Source of the DNA: a virus
Strand: one strand, 5' to 3'
Virus genome (UHGV): UHGV-0096129
DNA length: 31,048 nucleotides
The first letter of the stretch is position 1. Each line of letters begins with the position of its first letter. Of the stretch, positions 1,356 to 24,554 are shown in pieces. The position numbers and the translations under genes are program-made. The notes under the pieces were generated by a model. The model had not been told where the DNA came from. It did no database searches and was given only the letters and a program-made list of their open reading frames with translations.

Positions 1356-1627
1356 GTATTCGTATTGAAATTGGCGAACGTTATGTCGTTACCAGTGACA
1401 GCTTTCAGTTTATTCTCCACGAGAAAAAGAGAGCGGAAAGCGGTAAAAACGCCGGTCAGGAATGGCTGGCGGTGGTTGGTTATTATCCGAAATTAAGCCA
1501 GCTCGTTTCCGGCCTGATGCATCACGATATTCTGACCGGAAGCGCAAAGTCTTTTGCTGATTTAAACGCGCAGGTTGAGCAACTCAGCAGGCGTTGTTCA
1601 GAGGCTTTTGGCTCATATGGCCGTTAA
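1352..1627 (+). CDS. Small early protein, P2 orf83-position hypothetical
   Basis: 91-aa ORF coupled to the upstream gene (overlap 1352-1355). Its 3' end overlaps the gpA start at 1617. Confidence 0.6.
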   Translation: MSIRIEIGERYVVTSDSFQFILHEKKRAESGKNAGQEWLAVVGYYPKLSQLVSGLMHHDILTGSAKSFADLNAQVEQLSRRCSEAFGSYGR

Positions 1628-3902
1628 AGCCTCCGGGCGTTTTGTCCCTCCGTCAGCATTTGCTGCAGGCACCGGTAAGGCGTTTACCGGTGCTTATGCA
1701 TGGAACGCGCCACGCGAGGCCGTCGGGCGCGAAAGACCCCTTACACGTGACGAGATGCGTCAGGTGCAAGGTGTTTTATCCACGATTAACCGCCTGCCTT
1801 ACTTTTTGCGCTCGCTGTTTACTTCACGCTATGACTACATCCGGCGCAATAAAAGCCCGGTGCACGGGTTTTATTTCCTCACATCCACTTTTCAGCGTCG
1901 TTTATGGCCGCGCATTGAGCGTGTGAATCAGCGCCATGAAATGAACACCGACGCATCGTTACTGTTTCTGGCAGAGCGTGACCACTATGCGCGCCTGCCG
2001 GGAATGAATGACAAGGAGCTGAAAAAGTTTGCCGCCCGTATCTCATCGCAGCTTTTCATGATGTATGAGGAACTCAGCGATGCCTGGGTGGATGCGCATG
2101 GCGAAAAAGAATCACTGTTTACGGATGAGGCTCAGGCTCACCTGTATGGTCATGTTGCTGGCGCTGCACGTGCTTTCAATATTTCCCCGCTCTACTGGAA
2201 AAAATACCGTAAAGGACAGATAACCACGAGGCAGGCATATTCTGCCATTGCCCGCCTGTTTAACGATGAGTGGTGGACTCATCAGCTTAAAGGCCAGCGT
2301 ATGCGCTGGCATGAGGCGTTACTGATTGCTGTCGGGGAGGTCAATAAAGACCGTTCTCCTTATGCCAGTAAACATGCCATTCGTGATGTGCGTGCGCGCC
2401 GCCAGGCAAATCTGGAATTTCTTAAATCGTGTGACCTTGAAAACAGGGAAACCGGCGAGCGCATCGACCTTATCAGTAAGGTGATGGGCAGTATTTCTAA
2501 TCCTGAAATTCGCCGGATGGAGCTGATGAACACCATTGCCGGTATTGAACGTTACGCCGCCGCAGAGGGTGATGTGGGGATGTTTATCACGCTGACCGCG
2601 CCGTCAAAGTATCACCCGACACGTCAGGTCGGAAAAGGCGAAAGTAAAACCGTTCAGCTTAATCACGGCTGGAACGATGAGGCATTTAATCCAAAGGATG
2701 CGCAGCGTTATCTCTGCCGTATCTGGAGCCTGATGCGTACGGCATTCAAGGATAATGATTTACAGGTCTACGGTTTGCGTGTCGTCGAGCCACACCACGA
2801 CGGAACGCCGCACTGGCATATGATGCTTTTTTGTAATCCACGCCAGCGTAACCAGATTATCGAAATCATGCGTCGCTATGCGCTCAAAGAGGATGGCGAC
2901 GAAAGAGGAGCCGCGCGAAACCGTTTTCAGGCAAAGCACCTTAACCGGGGCGGTGCTGCGGGATATATCGCGAAATACATTTCAAAAAATATCGACGGCT
3001 ATGCACTGGATGGTCAGCTCGATAACGATACCGGTAAGCCGCTTAAAGATACTGCCGCGGCTGTTACCGCATGGGCGTCAACGTGGCGCATCCCGCAATT
3101 TAAAACGGTTGGACTGCCGACAATGGGGGCTTACCGTGAACTACGCAAATTGCCTCGCGGCGTCAGTATTGCTGATGAGTTTGACGAACGCGTCGAGGCT
3201 GCTCGCGCTGCCGCAGACAGTGGTGATTTTGCGTTGTATATCAGCGCGCAGGGTGGGGCAAATGTCCCGCGCGATTGTCAGACTGTCAGGGTTGCCCGTA
3301 GCCCGTCGGATGACGTTAACGAGTACGAGGAAGAAGTCGAGAGAGTGGTCGGCATTTACGCGCCGCATCTCGGCGCGCGTCATATTCATATCACCAGAAC
3401 GACGGACTGGCGCATTGTGCCGAAAGTTCCGCTCGTTGAGCCTTTGACTTTAAAAAGCGGCATCGCCGCGCCTCGGAGTCCTGTCAATAACTGTGGAAAG
3501 CTCACCGGTGGTGATACTTCGTTACCGGCTCCCACACCTTCTGAGCACGCCGCAGCAGTGCTTAATCTGGTTGATGACGGTGTTATTGAATGGAATGAAC
3601 CGGAGGTCGTGAGGGCGCTCAGGGGAGCATTAAAACACGGCCTGAAAACACCAAATCGTCAACAAAGAAACGGAAGCCCGTTAAAAACACATGAAATTGC
3701 ACCGTCGGCCAGACTGACCCGGTCGGAACGAATGCAAATCACCCGTATCCGCGTTGACCTTGCTCAGAACGGTATCAGGCCTCAGCGATGGGAGCTTGAG
3801 GCGCTGGCGCGTGGAGCGACCGTAAATTATGACGGGAAAAAATTCACGTATCCGGTCGCTGATGAGTGGCCGGGATTCTCAACAGTAATGGAGTGGACAT
3901 AA
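1617..3902 (+). CDS. A: Replication initiation endonuclease gpA (rolling-circle HUH nickase)
   Basis: From the ATG at 1617 the product is 761 aa, the recalled P2 A length. It has the HUH-type metal motif PHWHMMLF and the catalytic tyrosine motif GYIAKYISKN. In P2 the replication origin lies inside the 3' part of this gene; I cannot pin down the nick site here. Confidence 0.95.
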   Translation: MAVKASGRFVPPSAFAAGTGKAFTGAYAWNAPREAVGRERPLTRDEMRQVQGVLSTINRLPYFLRSLFTSRYDYIRRNKSPVHGFYFLTSTFQRRLWPRIERVNQRHEMNTDASLLFLAERDHYARLPGMNDKELKKFAARISSQLFMMYEELSDAWVDAHGEKESLFTDEAQAHLYGHVAGAARAFNISPLYWKKYRKGQITTRQAYSAIARLFNDEWWTHQLKGQRMRWHEALLIAVGEVNKDRSPYASKHAIRDVRARRQANLEFLKSCDLENRETGERIDLISKVMGSISNPEIRRMELMNTIAGIERYAAAEGDVGMFITLTAPSKYHPTRQVGKGESKTVQLNHGWNDEAFNPKDAQRYLCRIWSLMRTAFKDNDLQVYGLRVVEPHHDGTPHWHMMLFCNPRQRNQIIEIMRRYALKEDGDERGAARNRFQAKHLNRGGAAGYIAKYISKNIDGYALDGQLDNDTGKPLKDTAAAVTAWASTWRIPQFKTVGLPTMGAYRELRKLPRGVSIADEFDERVEAARAAADSGDFALYISAQGGANVPRDCQTVRVARSPSDDVNEYEEEVERVVGIYAPHLGARHIHITRTTDWRIVPKVPLVEPLTLKSGIAAPRSPVNNCGKLTGGDTSLPAPTPSEHAAAVLNLVDDGVIEWNEPEVVRALRGALKHGLKTPNRQQRNGSPLKTHEIAPSARLTRSERMQITRIRVDLAQNGIRPQRWELEALARGATVNYDGKKFTYPVADEWPGFSTVMEWT

Positions 3903-4354
3903 TGGCAAAAATTCACGAGGTAAAGCTGCACGCAAAATATTTTGACCTTGTGCTGGAAGGAAAGAAACGCGCAGAGTTTCGGAAAAATGACCGTAATTAT
4001 GAGCGCGGGGACACGTTGATTTTGCATGAATGGGTGCAGGGTGTGTATACGGGGCGAAAGGTTGAAGCCCAGATAACAGATGTTACTGACCTGTCAGACT
4101 GGCTGGAAGATTATGTCTTGCTAAGTATTGAGCGGCTTAATACAGGCGCATGTGAGATTGTGAACTGGAAAGAACTTAGTGAGCGTGGTCTGGTATTCAG
4201 AATTAATCATGAAATTATGCATCAGCTCGGCCTTGCTGTTATGTATGAACCAGAGACGGGGATGTCTGGCGGGGCAATGGTTGCCACGGATGGAGCATGG
4301 AACTATTCAGATGAACAGATTGAGCGTGCACAGCAAAACGGGTGGCTTGGATAA
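3902..4354 (+). CDS. ASCH/DUF3850-like domain protein with a C-terminal extension
   Basis: The start ATG at 3902 overlaps the gpA stop (TAATG). The N-terminus KIHEVKLHAKYFDLVLEGKKRAEFRKNDRNYERGDTLILHEW looks like the DUF3850/ASCH beta-barrel signature seen in phage early regions. The C-terminal ~75 aa are unassigned. Confidence 0.65.
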   Translation: MAKIHEVKLHAKYFDLVLEGKKRAEFRKNDRNYERGDTLILHEWVQGVYTGRKVEAQITDVTDLSDWLEDYVLLSIERLNTGACEIVNWKELSERGLVFRINHEIMHQLGLAVMYEPETGMSGGAMVATDGAWNYSDEQIERAQQNGWLG

Positions 4355-4560
4355 TGCACAGAATACCAGGTGAGATACCGCACCATAAAACTAAAAATAT
4401 CAAGCTGATGGCTATTGTTCAGCGTTTGCAGCAGATTATGGTCAACGAAAATCTGACGCCCGATGAGCTGGTCGGGTGTGCCGAAATAGTCCGGGATAAT
4501 TACGGGCGGTTTAACCATATCGGTCAATCCAGAGTTATGCCACCACCACGCAGACGATAG
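4342..4560 (+). CDS. Possible small hypothetical protein (start uncertain; ATG at 4408 is an alternative)
   Basis: 72-aa ORF with backbone-like composition. No convincing Shine-Dalgarno at either start. It is the last ORF before the composition changes. Confidence 0.3.
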   Translation: MAWIMHRIPGEIPHHKTKNIKLMAIVQRLQQIMVNENLTPDELVGCAEIVRDNYGRFNHIGQSRVMPPPRRR

Positions 4561-4789
4561 AGAACGCCGCCAGTCGTGAAACTTGTTTTCAGGGCTGGCG
4601 GGGTTGAACAACGAGCGAAGCGAGGCGTTAGTTGACAGTAATATTTTTACTGCGTTGGTGCTGTTTTTTGACGGTTGAAAGGAGTTAGCTCGGAGAGCTA
4701 AAGCTAACAACTTACAAATATTCAAAAGTAAGCTTCCTGTTGCTAACATAAGGTCGATTTTTTATGTGGATGATGCAAAAAGGATAGCT

Positions 4790-5521
4790 ATGGATACTGT
4801 AATCGCTTTTCTATCACTCGCTTTTTTCGTTGCTTTTTTCATCGGATTAATCAAACCATCACTGGTGCGGATGCCAAACCGTAAAAGTGCAAGTGCGGTT
4901 TATCTCGGAGGAGGTTTTGTATTGAGCATAATTGGTTCAATACTCTATCCAACAGAAAAAAGCCAGCCAGTTGCTAAAACTGAAACATCAACCGTTGCAG
5001 AACACCAAGTCCAAAAAAAATTCGAATATGGTGGAAAAACACTCAAGGAATATCGGAACGAGCCAAAGAAAACTCGACACGATATTGTGAATAGTTACAT
5101 TGATTTTAAGGAAGTGCCAGTCACCGCATCAGATGCATTTTATGCCTGCATGAGTGAATATACTTTTACCAAAGATGATGAGTTGAAACTCGGTGATGTT
5201 CTTGGATGGTGCTTTAATGATTATGAAAAAGATCCGAAATCACTAAACAATAAAATCAACCTTGATACATTTCAGAGTAATTTTAGCGGTTGGGATGGTT
5301 CTTATCGACCATTGGAAAAGCTAATTAAAGAGAATATGAACGATGATTCATCTTATAAACATGTGTCAACAGTGTATCATTTGGTTTTGAATAAAGATCC
5401 GCACGCCATTGTGAAAACAACATTTCGCGGAACTAATGCTTATGGCGGAGTGGTGAAACAGACCGTTGCGGCGCGCGTCAATGTTCGAACTGGTGAGGTA
5501 ACTTCAATAATTGATAACTAA
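4790..5521 (+). CDS. Two-TM membrane protein with a ~190-aa predicted periplasmic C-terminal domain; function unknown
   Basis: ORF 4766-5521. I prefer the ATG at 4790 (AGGA at 4781-4784, 5-nt spacer), giving 243 aa. There are two hydrophobic helices (VIAFLSLAFFVAFFIGLI and AVYLGGGFVLSIIGSILY). They are separated by a basic loop (KPSLVRMPNRKSAS), which under the positive-inside rule places the C-terminal domain outside the cytoplasm. Confidence 0.7.
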   Translation: MDTVIAFLSLAFFVAFFIGLIKPSLVRMPNRKSASAVYLGGGFVLSIIGSILYPTEKSQPVAKTETSTVAEHQVQKKFEYGGKTLKEYRNEPKKTRHDIVNSYIDFKEVPVTASDAFYACMSEYTFTKDDELKLGDVLGWCFNDYEKDPKSLNNKINLDTFQSNFSGWDGSYRPLEKLIKENMNDDSSYKHVSTVYHLVLNKDPHAIVKTTFRGTNAYGGVVKQTVAARVNVRTGEVTSIIDN

Positions 5522-5545
5522 AGTGAAGGGCTAGGCCATGTTATG

Positions 5546-5574
5546 TTTAAGCCATAATATGGCTTTTTTATGAT
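5546..5574 (+). promoter_or_regulatory. Candidate sigma70 promoter for the 198-aa gene
   Basis: TTTAAG (5546-5551), a 17-nt spacer, then TATGAT (5569-5574), about 30 nt upstream of the ATG at 5604. AT-rich context makes chance matches likely. Confidence 0.25.
5550..5569 (+). terminator. Weak rho-independent terminator candidate after the membrane-protein gene
   Basis: AGCCATAATATGGCT (5-7 bp stem) is followed directly by a T6 run ending at 5569, 29 nt after the stop codon. The stem is short and AT-rich. Confidence 0.35.
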
Positions 5575-5603
5575 TTGGGTAAATTGATAAGGAGTCGATT
5601 TAA

Positions 5604-6200
5604 ATGAATTCAAAAAAAAGGAATAAATACCTCAAGTTAATGTTTGAGTGTAGAAAAAGAATTGAAACGCTACATGATTTAGCATCCGGACATACAGGAG
5701 GACTTTATCTTCAAGTTTTAATAGAAATAGAAGCGTTACAACTCAGAAAGTTATTGGAGCTTATCGCATTTTCATCGTTAATTTCATATGAGGAATCCTA
5801 TAAGACTGTTGCGAAGAGTATTGATGGTGTATGGAAAGCCAAGCGTATTATAAGTGAGTTAGAAAAAATAAATCCAAATTTTTACCCGTTACCTGTATCA
5901 TCATTTACCAATGACGGGTGGAAGAAATTGAAAGGTGGATATTTAACAAAAAAACAATTTATTGCACTGTATGATGAATGTTCAACTCATATTCATGTTA
6001 GAAACCCATACAGGATAAGCGAAAACTCGCTGGCTTTTCATAGAAAAGTACCTTCATACTTAGAGAGAATTGAATGTTTATTATCTAAACATATTGTTTC
6101 ACTTGTAGATGATAGGGAGTTTCTTTTTGTAGAGGTACCTCATTTTGAAGATTCGGCTACCCCTCTAAGAATTAGATGTTTAATTAAAAATAGAGGGTAA
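5604..6200 (+). CDS. Hypothetical cytoplasmic protein, 198 aa, no recognised domain
   Basis: Strong RBS (AAGGAG at 5589-5594, 9-nt spacer). AT-rich codon usage like its neighbours. Predicted mostly helical, with no TM segment or signal peptide. Confidence 0.75.
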   Translation: MNSKKRNKYLKLMFECRKRIETLHDLASGHTGGLYLQVLIEIEALQLRKLLELIAFSSLISYEESYKTVAKSIDGVWKAKRIISELEKINPNFYPLPVSSFTNDGWKKLKGGYLTKKQFIALYDECSTHIHVRNPYRISENSLAFHRKVPSYLERIECLLSKHIVSLVDDREFLFVEVPHFEDSATPLRIRCLIKNRG

Positions 6201-6446
6201 ATTTTTATTATCCCTTAATGATAACTTACATTAGTTATGATAAAAGTTTGATAACGTCAGTAGTGCTGGAGCTGTCCTTCAGCACTGATGGAGTTGAACA
6301 ATGAGCACTTCTGGACGTTATATTAATACTGATATAGTTAGTGGTTTTATTCTAAATTATTAGCGTAGCGCCGAAACTCACTATTTACAATGGTGGGGTA
6401 ACGCTGAAAGAACCGGAGCGTAGATATCTTTTTTTACTGAAAAATT

Positions 6447-6468
6447 GTGGTCAATATTGCTTGACCAC
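6447..6468 (-). terminator. Candidate terminator hairpin downstream of the FRG gene
   Basis: Perfect 8-bp stem GTGGTCAA / TTGACCAC with a 6-nt loop. On the minus strand it is followed by AATTTT, 4 nt, then an A-run. It lies about 150 nt beyond the minus-strand stop at 6617. The U-tract is short. Confidence 0.3.
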
Positions 6469-6616
6469 TATACAGCGTCAGTTCAAACTACAATTAATAA
6501 AGTTAAGGTTCATAGCCTTTTTGAAGGGTACGTATCCAAGAGGCCTGTGCTCACTATGTGGTAAAGAGTCAAAATATCGTTATGTCTGATTCTTACGCAC
6601 AATTGTAATATTTCTT

Positions 6617-7972
6617 TTAAATGTCAGACATATATTTCTTTGCGATTTCAGAAGCTGTCTTTTCTATACTTGGATAAACAGTGCTCTCAGTAATGTTCAA
6701 TTGTGCAAGTTCTTTCAAGATTATTTTTTTATTAACTATGTCAACTCTGTCAAGAGGAAAGTCTTCTGTTGTCTCTGGGAGTACTGCCTCGTGACCAAAT
6801 AATAGAAATGCGCCAGACTGTGATTGAATGCGTTCATTATTTATTCTGGCGCGGATGAATAGTATTTTCCGAAGATCATGCAGGTCTATATTTTTTTTAA
6901 AATATGGTTTTTCAGCTTGAATATGATCTAAAAGTTTATTGAGTAGTTCTTTTGCGTGAGATTTGTCGTTTTCAATTAAGCTTTTTGATATAGTGCTTAA
7001 GATATTGTGTGGCATAAATGCCAGATTGGCTATACAGCTAACAGTATCAGAGTCAAAATATTTGATATTTTTTCTTTCTGTAGGAAACGAGATGACTTGT
7101 CCGGTGTCTTCAGGATCTTCACAGCATGCAAAATATAAAGCAATTAGCGGGTTGGATGTAATATCTAGCAATCTTGTAGGTAAACCATAATGCTGCATTC
7201 TAACTAATTTATCGATCGTAAAATTATCAGATATAAATTCATTAGGCCTTGCTGACAGAATTTCACGAACCATAGATGATTCTGAATCAAGGTGCTTATG
7301 AGTCCCGTTATCATGTTTCCGGAAAAGAGATGGGATAAGTTCATATTTATTTCGTGAATGTCCTCTATAAAAAATTTCAGAGTTTGAATTGTTGGATTTT
7401 TCTATAAAACTGATATATTCCTTTAAGCTCTTTATTTTTCTTATTTTTGATGTTCTTTTGATGTTTCCAATTTTGGAGGTGTTAGAGAGAATTTTTTCAG
7501 TTGTATCGTTTTTGGTTTTATTTAGCTCAAGTTTTAGCAGTGTTTCTCTTAATTTTTTATCTTTAACTGCCCAGTGGGTTCTGCTAAGACCATAAGCACC
7601 TAAGTCTAATATTTCTTTATATTGTTTTATTTCGGGGTTCTTGATTTCGCCAAAATCATGAACGATTTCAAAGTGATAACAAACATCATCATTGTCTATG
7701 TGTAAGTTGCCGACTTTTCCAAGTCTTACTCTTAAATATCTATTTTTGTCACCGTCTTTATCGTATATTTCAGTCATGAAAAGAACAGGTAGCTTAGATA
7801 GAGCGTCTAAAGTTATAGGGCTTACTGGTGTTAATTTTTTATAAAGTAAGGATGGTGTACCTTCTAGCATTCGGGAAAGAGAGAAACTATCTTCCCCATT
7901 TTTAATATTAGGATCCATAGATGGCCATCTATCAAACACAGAGGGCTCACCCCCGATAATGAGATTAAACAT
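6617..7972 (-). CDS. FRG-domain protein with an uncharacterised ~185-aa N-terminal domain
   Basis: 451 aa, with GGAG 7 nt upstream of the ATG. FRG-family signatures are present: FYRGHSRNKYELIPSLFR (res 201-218), MQHYGLPTRLLDITSNPLIALYFAC (res 259-283) and NERIQSQSGAFLLF (res 379-392). A Lys/Arg-rich linker (res ~165-185) precedes the domain. Confidence 0.85.
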   Translation of the reverse strand: MFNLIIGGEPSVFDRWPSMDPNIKNGEDSFSLSRMLEGTPSLLYKKLTPVSPITLDALSKLPVLFMTEIYDKDGDKNRYLRVRLGKVGNLHIDNDDVCYHFEIVHDFGEIKNPEIKQYKEILDLGAYGLSRTHWAVKDKKLRETLLKLELNKTKNDTTEKILSNTSKIGNIKRTSKIRKIKSLKEYISFIEKSNNSNSEIFYRGHSRNKYELIPSLFRKHDNGTHKHLDSESSMVREILSARPNEFISDNFTIDKLVRMQHYGLPTRLLDITSNPLIALYFACCEDPEDTGQVISFPTERKNIKYFDSDTVSCIANLAFMPHNILSTISKSLIENDKSHAKELLNKLLDHIQAEKPYFKKNIDLHDLRKILFIRARINNERIQSQSGAFLLFGHEAVLPETTEDFPLDRVDIVNKKIILKELAQLNITESTVYPSIEKTASEIAKKYMSDI

Positions 7973-8230
7973 TCTAACTCCTTTTTACTTAAGAAATGAC
8001 ATTGATTGTCTTAATGTTGTCGTAAGGGCGATGTAGATTGCCAGATCTGATTCAGCACTACCAGAGAAAACTGTCAGTCTATGTTTGACTCTGTGGGAAG
8101 GTAGTTTTGCGTACATTATTGCATCAAATTGCATTTGCTATTATTTGGCCTTTCATACAAATGAGCTCAAAACTGACGTGCTTTCGCCTGGCTTATACAT
8201 TTGCATCAAAACCGACCCATGAAGCGGGCG

Positions 8231-8249
8231 GGCGAGGCGGGGAAAGCAC
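8231..8249. other. cos: cos cohesive-end sequence (P2-type, 19 nt)
   Basis: GGCGAGGCGGGGAAAGCAC matches the P2 cohesive-end sequence I recall. It is correctly placed just beyond the portal gene Q. Confidence 0.85.
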
Positions 8250-8391
8250 TGCGCGCTGGCGGTGGTGCTGATTTTATTTTTTCAGCGTCTGAGCGCGTCG
8301 TGATGGCGTTTAAATTGTGCGCTGGGGCGTTGCTGTGTCTGCGGGCTGTTTTGTGCGGTGGTGAGCGTGTGAGGGCGTGATGACGGGATGT

Positions 8392-8413
8392 AAAAAAGCC
8401 GCCCGCAGGCGGC
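8392..8413 (-). terminator. Rho-independent terminator of the P-Q operon
   Basis: On the minus strand: GCCGCC-TGCG-GGCGGC (6-bp GC stem, 4-nt loop) followed by TTTTTT, starting 6 nt after the Q stop codon. Confidence 0.7.
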
Positions 8414-8418
8414 GATGT

Positions 8419-9453
8419 TCAGCCGTTGTCAGTGTCCAGTGAGTAGTTTTTAAAGCGGATGACCTCCTGACCGAGCCAGCCGTTTATTTCCCGAATCCTG
8501 TCCTGTAACGGGATAAGCTCATTGCGGACAAAGACCTTTGCCACTTTCTCAATATCGCCCAGCGACCCGACATTCTCCGGCTTACCGCCCATCAACTGAA
8601 AGGGGATGCGGTGTGCGTCCAGCAGGTCAGCGGCGCTGGCTTTTTTGATATTAAAAAAATCGTCCTTCGTTGCCACTTCACTGAGCGGGATAATTTTAAT
8701 ACCGTCGGCTTTTCCCTGTGGGGCGTAGAGAAACAGGTTTTTAAAGTTGTTGCGGCCTTTCGACTTCACCATGTTTTCGCGAAGCATTTCGATATCGTTG
8801 CGATCCTGCACGGCATCGGTGACGTACATGATGTATCCGGCATGTGCGCCATTTTCGTAATACTTGCGGCGGAACAGCGTGGCCGACTCATTCAGCCAGG
8901 CAGAGTTAAGGGCGCTGAGATATTCCGGCAGGCCGTACAGCTCCTGATTAATATCCGGCTCCAGCAGGTGAAATACGGAGCCGGGCGCGAAAGGTGTCGG
9001 CTCGTTGAAGGACGGCACCCACCAGTAAACATCCTCCTCCACGCCACGGCGGGTATATTTTGCCGGTGAGGTTTCCAGTCTGATGACCTTACCGGTGGTG
9101 CTGTAACGCTTTTCCAGAAACGCATTACCGAACACCAGAAAATCCAGCACAAAGCGGCTGAAATCCTGCTGGGAAAGCCACGGGTGCGGGATAAACGTTG
9201 AAGCCAGAATATTACGTTTGACGTAAATCGGTGAGCTGTGATGCACGGCAGCACGCAGACTTTTTGCCAGACCGGTAAAGCTGACCGGCGGCTCATACCA
9301 TCTGCCGTTACTGATGCATTCGACGTAATCCAGAATGTCACGGCGGTCGAGTACCGGCACCGGCTCGCCAAAGGTGAATGCCTCCATTTTCGGGGCGCTG
9401 GCGGTCATTGTTTTTGCCGCAGGTTGCGGTGTTTTCCCTTTTTTCTTGCTCAT
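8419..9453 (-). CDS. Q: Portal protein gpQ
   Basis: 344 aa, the recalled P2 Q length. It is divergent from O and lies next to cos, as in P2, and is coupled to P (shared base 9453). Confidence 0.95.
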   Translation of the reverse strand: MSKKKGKTPQPAAKTMTASAPKMEAFTFGEPVPVLDRRDILDYVECISNGRWYEPPVSFTGLAKSLRAAVHHSSPIYVKRNILASTFIPHPWLSQQDFSRFVLDFLVFGNAFLEKRYSTTGKVIRLETSPAKYTRRGVEEDVYWWVPSFNEPTPFAPGSVFHLLEPDINQELYGLPEYLSALNSAWLNESATLFRRKYYENGAHAGYIMYVTDAVQDRNDIEMLRENMVKSKGRNNFKNLFLYAPQGKADGIKIIPLSEVATKDDFFNIKKASAADLLDAHRIPFQLMGGKPENVGSLGDIEKVAKVFVRNELIPLQDRIREINGWLGQEVIRFKNYSLDTDNG

Positions 9454-23364: not shown

Positions 23365-23515
23365 GTTGTATGAGCTGACATATCTATAGCACAGAGTAAA
23401 GCCTAATCTGACAGTCCGCTCTGTGCAAGGAGCGGACATTACCTAACACATTGGTAACCTTCACAGATTTACGCGTTCTACATAGTTAGCATTGTATCTG
23501 ATGAGTTATCATGTT

Positions 23516-24295
23516 TTAAAATATCCAACTGATAAATCCACCTGAATACTTTTCACTAATTTTGATTGCATAAAGATCATGAAGAGTTATAAATAAATCA
23601 TTATCTTCTTTGAAAATTAACTCCTCATATTCTGCCATTATCAAATTATGCTGTGTTGTTAGTTTAGATATGTTATCTATTTCACTGGCAAGCATGGATT
23701 TGTTTACATTGGTGTGTGGATCCATGGCAATATATTTCCGCATCAATGGAATTAGTTGATCAGGGTCTATATTTTTTGCATTTTCCTTTGCTTTTTTTTG
23801 TCTTTCTGAATAGATGGAGTTAATTGTGTCAGTGTGTTTTTTCGCCAGTCTCTTAAACTCTGGATATGAACCAGTAACTAATGCAAGCTCTTCGTACTTA
23901 AGGAATAAATCGATATTGCATTTTTTTACCGTCATTTCAAGATCTTCAACTCTTTTTTTTAACTCTTCATTTGTTTTAATAAGAGACATCGGGAGAACTT
24001 CATAATGTTGTCCTAATTCTGAATCAGGGCTCATTGCCATATGTACTATTTCATTATACATGAGCTGATAAGAAGCAGATAACTCTCCATACTTTAGAAA
24101 TAGTTCATTATGTGAAGATGAACAAGAACTTTGTAATTTCATCATTGGCCTAAAGTAATCCTTTATAAACTCCTCCTGAAGATCTTGGTCTTTTTTGTAG
24201 CTCTCTAGGATTCCAGCAAAAAGAAATGACCCTAAAGATATAGAGATTATGGATATTAGCAATTGACTAAGGAATGATTGTGTTTCATTACTCAT
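23516..24295 (-). CDS. Membrane-anchored helical protein, 259 aa, unknown function (cargo at the P2 Z/fun position)
   Basis: AGGA 8 nt upstream of the ATG. One N-terminal TM helix (FLSQLLISIISISLGSFLFAGIL), then a Lys/Glu-rich helical region. Very AT-rich (about 25% G+C in line 23581-23640 by hand count). It is antisense to the flanking late operons. Confidence 0.75.
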   Translation of the reverse strand: MSNETQSFLSQLLISIISISLGSFLFAGILESYKKDQDLQEEFIKDYFRPMMKLQSSCSSSHNELFLKYGELSASYQLMYNEIVHMAMSPDSELGQHYEVLPMSLIKTNEELKKRVEDLEMTVKKCNIDLFLKYEELALVTGSYPEFKRLAKKHTDTINSIYSERQKKAKENAKNIDPDQLIPLMRKYIAMDPHTNVNKSMLASEIDNISKLTTQHNLIMAEYEELIFKEDNDLFITLHDLYAIKISEKYSGGFISWIF

Positions 24296-24554
24296 AAAAC
24301 ATCCTTAAAAAATAACACGAAAAGTGACTCCTGACAGGGAAGAAACGACAGGTCGGAAACAAACTTAACTGATGAGTTAGCCGTAGTCCAGAACCTTGTT
24401 TGAACACTTAGTGTGACTGTTTGCATCTCAGGAATTTGTGCCAATAATATTTGAATCCTTATAATTTATTTAAATCAAATTTAGTTACTCGCTCAAAGCA
24501 GGCTGTCAGATTTGATAGCGTTTGGGCTATGTAAACTGTCAGTCGGAAAATGAG

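Follow-up and report, generated by a model that had tools for sequence, protein, structure and literature searches.

In T4-type phages, promoter-early stem-loop (PeSL) cassettes, reportedly described by Arbiol et al. in 2010, flank mobile open reading frames (ORFs) in hyperplastic regions. The subject of this analysis is a repeat of about 70 nucleotides (nt), denoted E, that occurs twice in a 31,048-nt stretch of the virus genome UHGV-0096129 (below, the window, i.e., the whole stretch of DNA that was analysed), which is a P2-like (Peduovirus) prophage. Like PeSLs, E is a short, conserved, hairpin-bearing intergenic repeat that is found in a variable region, brackets accessory genes and may supply homology for the shuffling of modules; unlike PeSLs, it lacks a general promoter, is appended 3' of the preceding gene rather than placed 5' of a mobile ORF, is present in 1-3 copies per genome in temperate P2/186-like phages, and shows no sequence similarity to the T4-type cassettes. 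Integron attC sites resemble E in being imperfect palindromes that lie 3' of a gene unit and fold in a strand-specific manner, with the units found in varying order. However, E arrays are very short, most cargo genes lack E, and no IntI/attI/Pc platform was seen, no IntI-specific search having been made. The REP/BIME palindromes and the RNase III hairpins of the T7 early genes are stable structures located 3' of the coding regions of polycistronic mRNAs that can protect or define mRNA 3' ends. E, too, is a stable post-coding hairpin without a U-tract; it differs from REP/BIME in occupying 1-2 places per genome at one prophage locus instead of hundreds of chromosomal sites, and from both REP/BIME and the T7 hairpins in having a conserved unpaired core and a second hairpin. 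Thus, E is like the known hairpin repeats of variable phage regions and is distinct from them in sequence, in its placement at the 3' side of genes, and in its locus.

The locus is the gpA-gpQ (tin/old, 'TO') hotspot, which is said to have been described also by Odegrip in 2006. Such hotspots of P2-like prophages are a major reservoir of anti-phage defence genes, and the island in the window, with two cargo genes (genes 1 and 2) and an FRG-domain gene next to cos, is ordinary cargo of the gpA-gpQ defence hotspot as delineated by Rousset et al. in PMC9122126. In both PMC9122126 (2022) and PMC13586616 (2026, a re-analysis), the hotspot is delimited by the protein genes that flank it and its rapid exchange is stated to be of unknown mechanism, with a 'second homologous recombination' being postulated; a hairpin or junction element is mentioned in neither, and the E sequence strings were found in no paper of the literature searched, although E may have been described earlier. 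With confidence slightly above even, we propose that E is a selected, structured 3' element of early transcripts and at the same time provides portable homology through which cargo is exchanged. With E, the left boundary of the hotspot narrows to a 70-nt unit, and sub-structure becomes visible in some islands; the presence of E at this border and between some cassettes offers a concrete, mutable target for the question of how cargo is exchanged.

The initial annotation of the window singled out two imperfect direct repeats of 29 nt, TTCAGGGCTGGCGGGGTTGAACAACGAGC at 4588-4616 and TTCAGCACTGATGGAGTTGAACAATGAGC at 6278-6306, with 23 of 29 positions shared and 15 of 17 in the core, and these coordinates and counts are confirmed. 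Taken alone, a 23/29 direct pair arises in 2% of Markov simulations of a 4.8-kb region, which extrapolates to roughly one such pair per 31-kb window, and the 29-mers are not within the top 20 families of the repeat search. The similarity is nevertheless real because it extends, without gaps, to the full 70-nt unit (4562-4631 versus 6252-6321, 43 of 70 positions identical). The two copies, the second of which is denoted E', and their main hairpins are as follows.

4562-4631, plus strand: E copy 1, a junction element of about 70 nt that holds the first 29-mer (covariance model, 96.9 bits).
4563-4605, plus strand: hairpin 1 of copy 1, a 19-position stem with a 5-nt loop (inverted-repeat search and RNA fold).
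6252-6321, plus strand: E', a diverged E copy that holds the second 29-mer (covariance model, 48.2 bits).
6253-6295, plus strand: hairpin 1 of E', in register with that of copy 1, with different stem bases.

A covariance model derived from 56 distinct copies, with E' excluded, assigns 96.9 bits to copy 1 (4559-4634) and 48.2 bits to copy 2 (6249-6324, E~3e-10), both of which match model positions 1-76 without indels, whereas the best unrelated match in the window scores 11.8 bits. The pattern used to collect the copies had been written to fit both window copies, and the 51 columns outside the pattern were scored separately; on these columns, copy 2 ranks second among the 61,944 76-mers of the window, after copy 1 only. 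The 5' and 3' arms of copy 2 pair at 17 of 19 positions in register, a value that is also found in copy 1 and is reached by none of 100,000 shuffles of the 5' arm. Furthermore, copies that misfit the collection pattern turned up independently (e.g., 5391-5466 of locus L124, 59.8 bits). Given the off-pattern columns, the pairing and the off-pattern copies, E' is a genuine diverged member of the E family. Chance, a possibility raised by the initial annotation, accounts tolerably for the bare 29-mers, a marginal match, and fails for the match to the 70-nt family, which is non-random; considering the gap in bit scores, the rank of copy 2, its hairpin and the presence of an orthologous E copy behind gene 2 in Salmonella, coincidence is the least probable of all the explanations weighed here.

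E consists of a 19-bp hairpin 1, the core GGTTGAACAAC, a 5-bp second hairpin and the tail GCGTTAG, with sharp limits across the listed IMG/VR loci (AAACGCCGCCGGTGCTGAAACTCGCTTTCAGTGCTGGCGGGGTTGAACAACGAGCnnnGCGAGGCGTTAG). Hairpin 1 spans 19 positions and is closed by an invariant AAC...GTT. Among 33 diverse copies, 94.6% of the cells in this stem are paired, whereas shifting the 3' partner by 1-3 columns leaves only 31-49% paired; double-sided changes are seen in 8 of 18 pairs, and the covariation score is reached by none of 500 shuffles. G-U is the commonest pair at three stem positions of hairpin 1, where the opposite strand would have C.A mismatches, and the RNA fold of 4555-4645 has a free energy of -35.2 kcal/mol (z=-4.4) on the plus strand versus -20.2 on the minus strand. 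Given the G-U pairs and the stronger plus-strand fold, the functional strand is the sense strand of the early operon, either as RNA or as single-stranded DNA. In hairpin 2, the outer and inner pairs are conserved, and the two middle positions are either tandem G.A/A.G or U-A/C-G. A search of Rfam (Rfam 15, region 3800-8600, E<=1) returned only noise, namely Giardia RNase MRP with 20.9 bits (gathering threshold 60, E=0.069).

The ends of E are complementary in the consensus (AACGCC...GGCGTT, 4563-4568/4624-4629), and those of E' are changed jointly on both sides (AACGTC...GACGTT, 6253-6258/6314-6319). A terminal inverted repeat, in the form of either ends like those of miniature inverted-repeat transposable elements or a closing helix, was rejected, there being no covariation across the 33 copies, with 93-161 of 500 shuffles matching the observed value. 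E was also rejected as an intrinsic terminator: the stem is followed by GGGGTTGAACAAC, without a U-tract, and the terminator scan skips both copies while reporting a site at 5533-5565. A promoter role was rejected as well: in a consensus scan, copy 1 lacks any promoter-like site and E' has only a weak 9/12 match.

The initial annotation interpreted the repeat as the 5' end of a displaced cargo gene, with a Shine-Dalgarno sequence and a start codon in the second copy. The ATG at 6301 indeed opens a 20-codon ORF (6301-6363), preceded by GGAG 7 nt ahead, and the first copy has ACG instead. However, ATG is present in 3 of 90 distinct E copies, with ACG or ACT in the others, 1-nt indels are found in 10 of 100 distinct copies, and the variable sites display no 3-nt periodicity (author's tally of listed sites). 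These three observations indicate that E is non-coding. Combined with the shortness of the ORF, the RNA-type covariation of the hairpin, the unrelated flanks on both sides of E and the fact that E trails stop codons (in 121 of 132 contexts) rather than leading genes, they refute a gene start and leave the ribosome-binding signal of copy 2 as incidental; a duplicated 5' end is accordingly very unlikely, if marginally less so than chance.

A minus-strand ORF of 148 amino acids (aa; 4303-4749), which runs across E and the small orf37-like gene that precedes it, matches phrog_33524 (E=5e-45), and an overlapping minus-strand coding sequence is also annotated in phage P24A7b. This ORF was rejected as coding on the basis of the codon bias of the plus frame of the orf37-like gene (substitutions 527/178/89 at codon positions 3/1/2 among 26 diverged homologs) and the 1-nt indels of E. 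The family phrog_33524 looks like a set of spurious calls across conserved non-coding and antisense DNA. For annotators, E thus yields a precise hotspot boundary, a candidate RNA family and one flagged spurious protein family, the antisense ORF over E.

E is present in at least 120 IMG/VR loci (pattern scan) and in 63 phage records. Of 5426 complete E. coli genomes, 518 carry it, each at 1-2 places, and the sampled E-bearing loci are P2/186-type prophage regions. Among species-representative genomes, real E copies are found only in Enterobacterales (Citrobacter, Kluyvera, Trabulsiella, Scandinavium, Enterobacter, Erwinia and Escherichia); 31 of the 41 matches of the 20-mer pattern used for these genomes were due to chance, mostly in high-GC genomes, and were removed by the model score. 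Many P2-like phages, among them P2, Wphi and P24A7b, retain the region of copy 1 as far as position ~4631. The placement of E is highly regular: in 121 of 132 distinct contexts (92%), E is preceded, at a distance of 0-23 nt, by the end of an open frame of 50 or more codons on the same strand, and the gap between the stop codon and E is exactly 1 nt in 73 of the 132. In the window, copy 1 begins 1 nt past the stop codon of the orf37-like gene, in the orientation of gene A; E' has the same orientation and starts 51 nt past the stop codon of gene 2 (53 nt in the case of its Salmonella ortholog). PSP3 carries two E copies, one behind tumB and one behind orf37. Among the matches listed, about 25 of the 120 IMG/VR loci have pairs of E copies, 394-429 nt apart, that flank the orf37-like gene; such a pair is also found in Enterobacter chuandaensis (L170, 5829-5904 and 6226-6301). 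In several paired loci, the upstream E has diverged strongly, scoring 30-57 bits, and its upper stem retains pairing although the sequence there differs (GCGCAAAAA/TTTTTGCGT).

The sequences on either side of E are unrelated between phages. The flanks of 96 distinct copies fall into 10 types upstream and 30 types downstream, which are combined in 51 ways; one cargo type is located behind six different upstream genes. In a conditional linkage test, sites just before E track the upstream gene given the cargo (z 3-10), the loop-2 sites 56-58 track the cargo given the upstream gene (z 3.9-5.7), the hairpin-1 sites are tied to neither flank, and sites past TTAG track the cargo only. Exchanges are thus placed at the 5' edge of E and between hairpin 1 and loop 2, where the conserved core GGCGGGGTTGAACAACGAGC lies. 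The proposal of the initial annotation that the repeats are a duplicated junction bracketing genes 1 and 2 is borne out in this respect. The parts of the hotspot, on which the history of the island can be traced, are the following.

1575-3902: gene A, replication endonuclease.
Between gene A and the orf37-like gene: DUF3850/ASCH gene.
4342-4560, plus strand: orf37-like small gene, 72 aa, a backbone gene with E copy 1 appended (phrog_11386, E=5e-39), homologous to PSP3 gp37.
4632-4789, plus strand: spacer from E to gene 1, common to the E. coli gene-1-only islands.
4790-5521, plus strand: cargo gene 1, function unassigned, 243 aa with its ATG at 4790 and an N-terminal hydrophobic segment (phrog_3403; no match in Pfam and PADLOC searches).
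5533-5575, plus strand: intrinsic-terminator-like hairpin with a T-run, between genes 1 and 2 (terminator scan).
5604-6200, plus strand: cargo gene 2, 198 aa, function unassigned (phrog_13799).
6301-6363, plus strand: 20-codon ORF from the ATG inside E', not a gene (ORF list).
6617-7972, minus strand: FRG-domain cargo gene, 451 aa (Pfam FRG, E=9e-23; PADLOC PDC-S15, E=6e-98).
8231-8249, plus strand: cos cohesive-end sequence GGCGAGGCGGGGAAAGCAC, bounding the hotspot on the right (exact match, 0 expected by chance).
Beyond cos, minus strand: portal gene Q.

The low-G+C island spans approximately 4640 to 8000, and backbone homology with relatives stops at about 4631 and resumes at about 8202. 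Only 7 E. coli genomes carry the island in full; a further 77 have just gene 1 in common with it, with 92-96% identity and a breakpoint immediately past the gene 1 stop codon. In L124, the one gene-1-only island examined (94% identical to window positions 4300-5522 in a blastn search), a third copy, denoted E'' (5391-5466, 59.8 bits), starts 10 nt past the gene 1 stop codon and directly adjoins an unrelated gene. The equivalent copy of P24A7b is decayed (17.7 bits), and in both genomes the E copy stands where the window has the 5533-5575 terminator hairpin. The next gene of L124 (5465-6121) has its start codon at the end of this internal E; given the 2-nt overlap, the E tail may supply the translation-initiation region of that gene.

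The Salmonella 186-like prophages have a different order, namely DinI, gene 1 (81% aa identity, with the alignment beginning at the 4790 ATG), gene 2 (83% aa identity), E (57 bits), orf37 and E (99 bits). Positions 4740-6305 of the window, which comprise gene 1, the terminator, gene 2 and E' up to its core, are contiguous with the block in Salmonella L127 (78.5% identity over 1577 nt), where this block occupies a different position; in the spacer, homology to the Salmonella module begins only at 4740 (blastn), and at the other end it breaks off within the E' core. Past the Salmonella E copy, the sequence shows homology to what lies past the first E of PSP3; by position, E' is therefore the ortholog of the E normally found behind tumB/DinI. 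In Salmonella, genes 1 and 2 lie between the DinI stop codon and the E' ortholog, and E' is the cognate 3' element of the gene 1-gene 2 module, travelling behind gene 2. The cassette orders are permuted between phages: orf37-E followed by gene 1-gene 2-E' in the window; DinI, gene 1-gene 2-E' and orf37-E in Salmonella; orf37-E, gene 1-E'' and another gene in L124; and tumB-E followed by orf37-E in PSP3.

These comparisons support the suggestion of the initial annotation that the island is composite and was built in more than one step, the Salmonella-type block 4740-6305 being set against the gene-1-only breakpoint of E. coli. The specific scenario of a single module of genes 1 and 2 that entered upstream of an FRG cassette already in place finds no such backing: each of the two genes occurs without the other, with gene 2 standing alone among the annotated or called genes of the hotspot in Yersinia phage YpM_50 (70% aa identity) and in Enterobacter P2-like prophages (64% aa identity), E' travels with gene 2 and not with the FRG gene, and no island with only E and the FRG gene, from which relative age could be judged, is present among the FRG homolog loci examined. 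The comparison with FRG-only hotspots that had been suggested yields homologs only in P22H1 (47% aa identity), the hotspot of which lacks E, in the other P2 hotspot, and in E-less non-phage islands (61-63% aa identity). The closest homolog with retrievable context (72% aa identity; L135, 5001-6341, Logan ERR11480052) belongs to that other hotspot, where it sits between the tail-fibre genes and gpU of a P2-like prophage. The FRG gene is therefore an independently mobile defence candidate that moves between both hotspots of the P2-like family.

Under the proposed mechanism, E would be maintained by selection as a structured element of the 3' untranslated region of the early transcript, most likely as a hairpin that protects or processes the mRNA 3' end. 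Because E is the only sequence shared by otherwise unrelated neighbours, it could serve as portable homology for the exchange of cargo between phages. E would then provide the left-hand crossover of the exchange postulated in PMC9122126, and the right-hand partner exchange point would lie at or near cos. Crossovers at the edges of E and in its conserved core would generate units of the form 'gene(s) plus 3' E', with an order that varies from phage to phage, and islands like that of the window, with an E on either side of genes 1 and 2.

Several points weigh against this proposal. E is missing altogether from the Enterobacter L131-134 prophages and from P22H1, which have no similar sequence in its place; therefore, the element is dispensable both for the phage and for the variability of the hotspot. 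Only this island family has yielded E copies inside the cargo; further extra copies lie about 405 nt upstream and flank the orf37-like gene. The internal copies decay, as in P24A7b, which argues against strong selection on each copy. The most conserved stretch of E, about 20 nt, is short for RecA-dependent recombination in E. coli. The invariance of the core among the canonical copies is in part an artefact of the search pattern with which they were collected. Both the RNA-level function of E and the pathway of homologous recombination are features that we infer from sequence comparison, and the abrupt changes of flanks could come about through illegitimate recombination combined with selection that retains E.

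The last possibility leads to an explanation that we regard as considerably less probable than the combined role, although it is the most serious of the alternatives, namely that E is purely a functional RNA or a protein-binding element, and the changes of flanks are illegitimate exchanges filtered by selection. The strong structural conservation, covariation and strand specificity of E are compatible with such a role, as are its tight placement 1 nt past stop codons, the shortness of the conserved stretches, and the position of the gene 1 breakpoint of the window, which falls at the edge of the E'' position of its relatives and not inside an E. However, the segregation of the loop-2 sites with the cargo, and of the pre-E sites with the upstream gene, indicates exchanges inside E; the homology between the window and Salmonella stops within the E' core; and the 'gene(s) plus E' units recur in permuted order.

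The strand-specific folding of E, on the same strand as gene A, its location a few hundred nt downstream of this replication gene and the conserved unpaired segments next to a long hairpin also fit a single-strand DNA signal for the rolling-circle replication of P2, e.g., a hairpin for lagging-strand initiation or helicase loading, with the extra copies being by-products. P2 replicates by a rolling circle from an ori inside gene A, and its lagging strand requires protein B (PMC3986222); by analogy with phiX174, the displaced strand would be the sense strand. Nevertheless, E is missing from some P2-like phages that have the same family of A genes, its position is set by the stop codon of the preceding gene and not by gene A, three of the stem positions are mostly G-T, which is a weak pair in DNA, and two or three E copies are present in some phages. 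We therefore consider a replication signal improbable. The candidate that E is a copy of the replication origin was rejected given that the interior of gene A scores at most 11.8 bits, which leaves room for a short shared nick motif.

The location of E at the 3' end of each unit, the E-gene-E arrays, the permuted cassette orders and the strand-specific folding bring to mind integron cassettes. In such a scheme, E would be a site-specific recombination site, extruded as a hairpin from the single strand displaced in rolling-circle replication, and cut and rejoined near GTT by Int or the HUH protein gpA, so that 'gene plus E' cassettes are reordered. The stem base AAC...GTT is invariant, the inferred crossover zone takes in this GTT, and the attC R' core consensus GTTRRRY is matched by GTTGAAC in both window copies and in nearly all canonical copies. 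The R'' consensus RYYYAAC, however, is not matched: the 5' boxes are AGCAAAC, GACAAAC, AGAGAAC or TGATAAC, only AAC pairs with GTT, and the pairing of the ends stops there. Furthermore, the arrays have at most three copies and the majority of cargo genes are not followed by an E, internal copies show divergence or decay, gene A contains nothing E-like (best score 11.8 bits), the terminal complementarity shows no covariation, and no integron-type integrase was seen among the ORFs scanned around the island, in a scan that did not include an IntI-specific search; the integrase of the related loci is an ordinary P2-type Phage_integrase encoded far from the hotspot. An integron-like system thus seems even more doubtful than a replication signal. 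If it were true, E would define a previously unrecognised system that excises, inserts and reorders defence cassettes in P2/186-like phages.

At the two borders of the hotspot, a short sequence is shared. The 8-mer GCGAGGCG, located in the E tail (4619-4626), recurs in the first 9 bases of the cos sequence, GGCGAGGCGGGG, yet about one chance match of an 8-mer is expected per 62 kb of two-strand sequence (an estimate).

The window contains a second low-G+C patch at 23500-24500 (31-34% versus about 55%), with a minus-strand ORF of 259 aa (23516-24295) that belongs to phrog_7729 (function unassigned) and has no PADLOC match. Judging by its position, this patch is probably the second P2 hotspot, of the Z/fun type; no E copy is present within it. 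Finally, upstream of the FRG gene, a stretch of about 110 nt (7990-8105) is missing from relatives aligned at cos. This stretch holds one arm of a 19-nt inverted repeat (6768-6786/8053-8071, 84% complementary), the other arm of which lies inside the FRG coding region.

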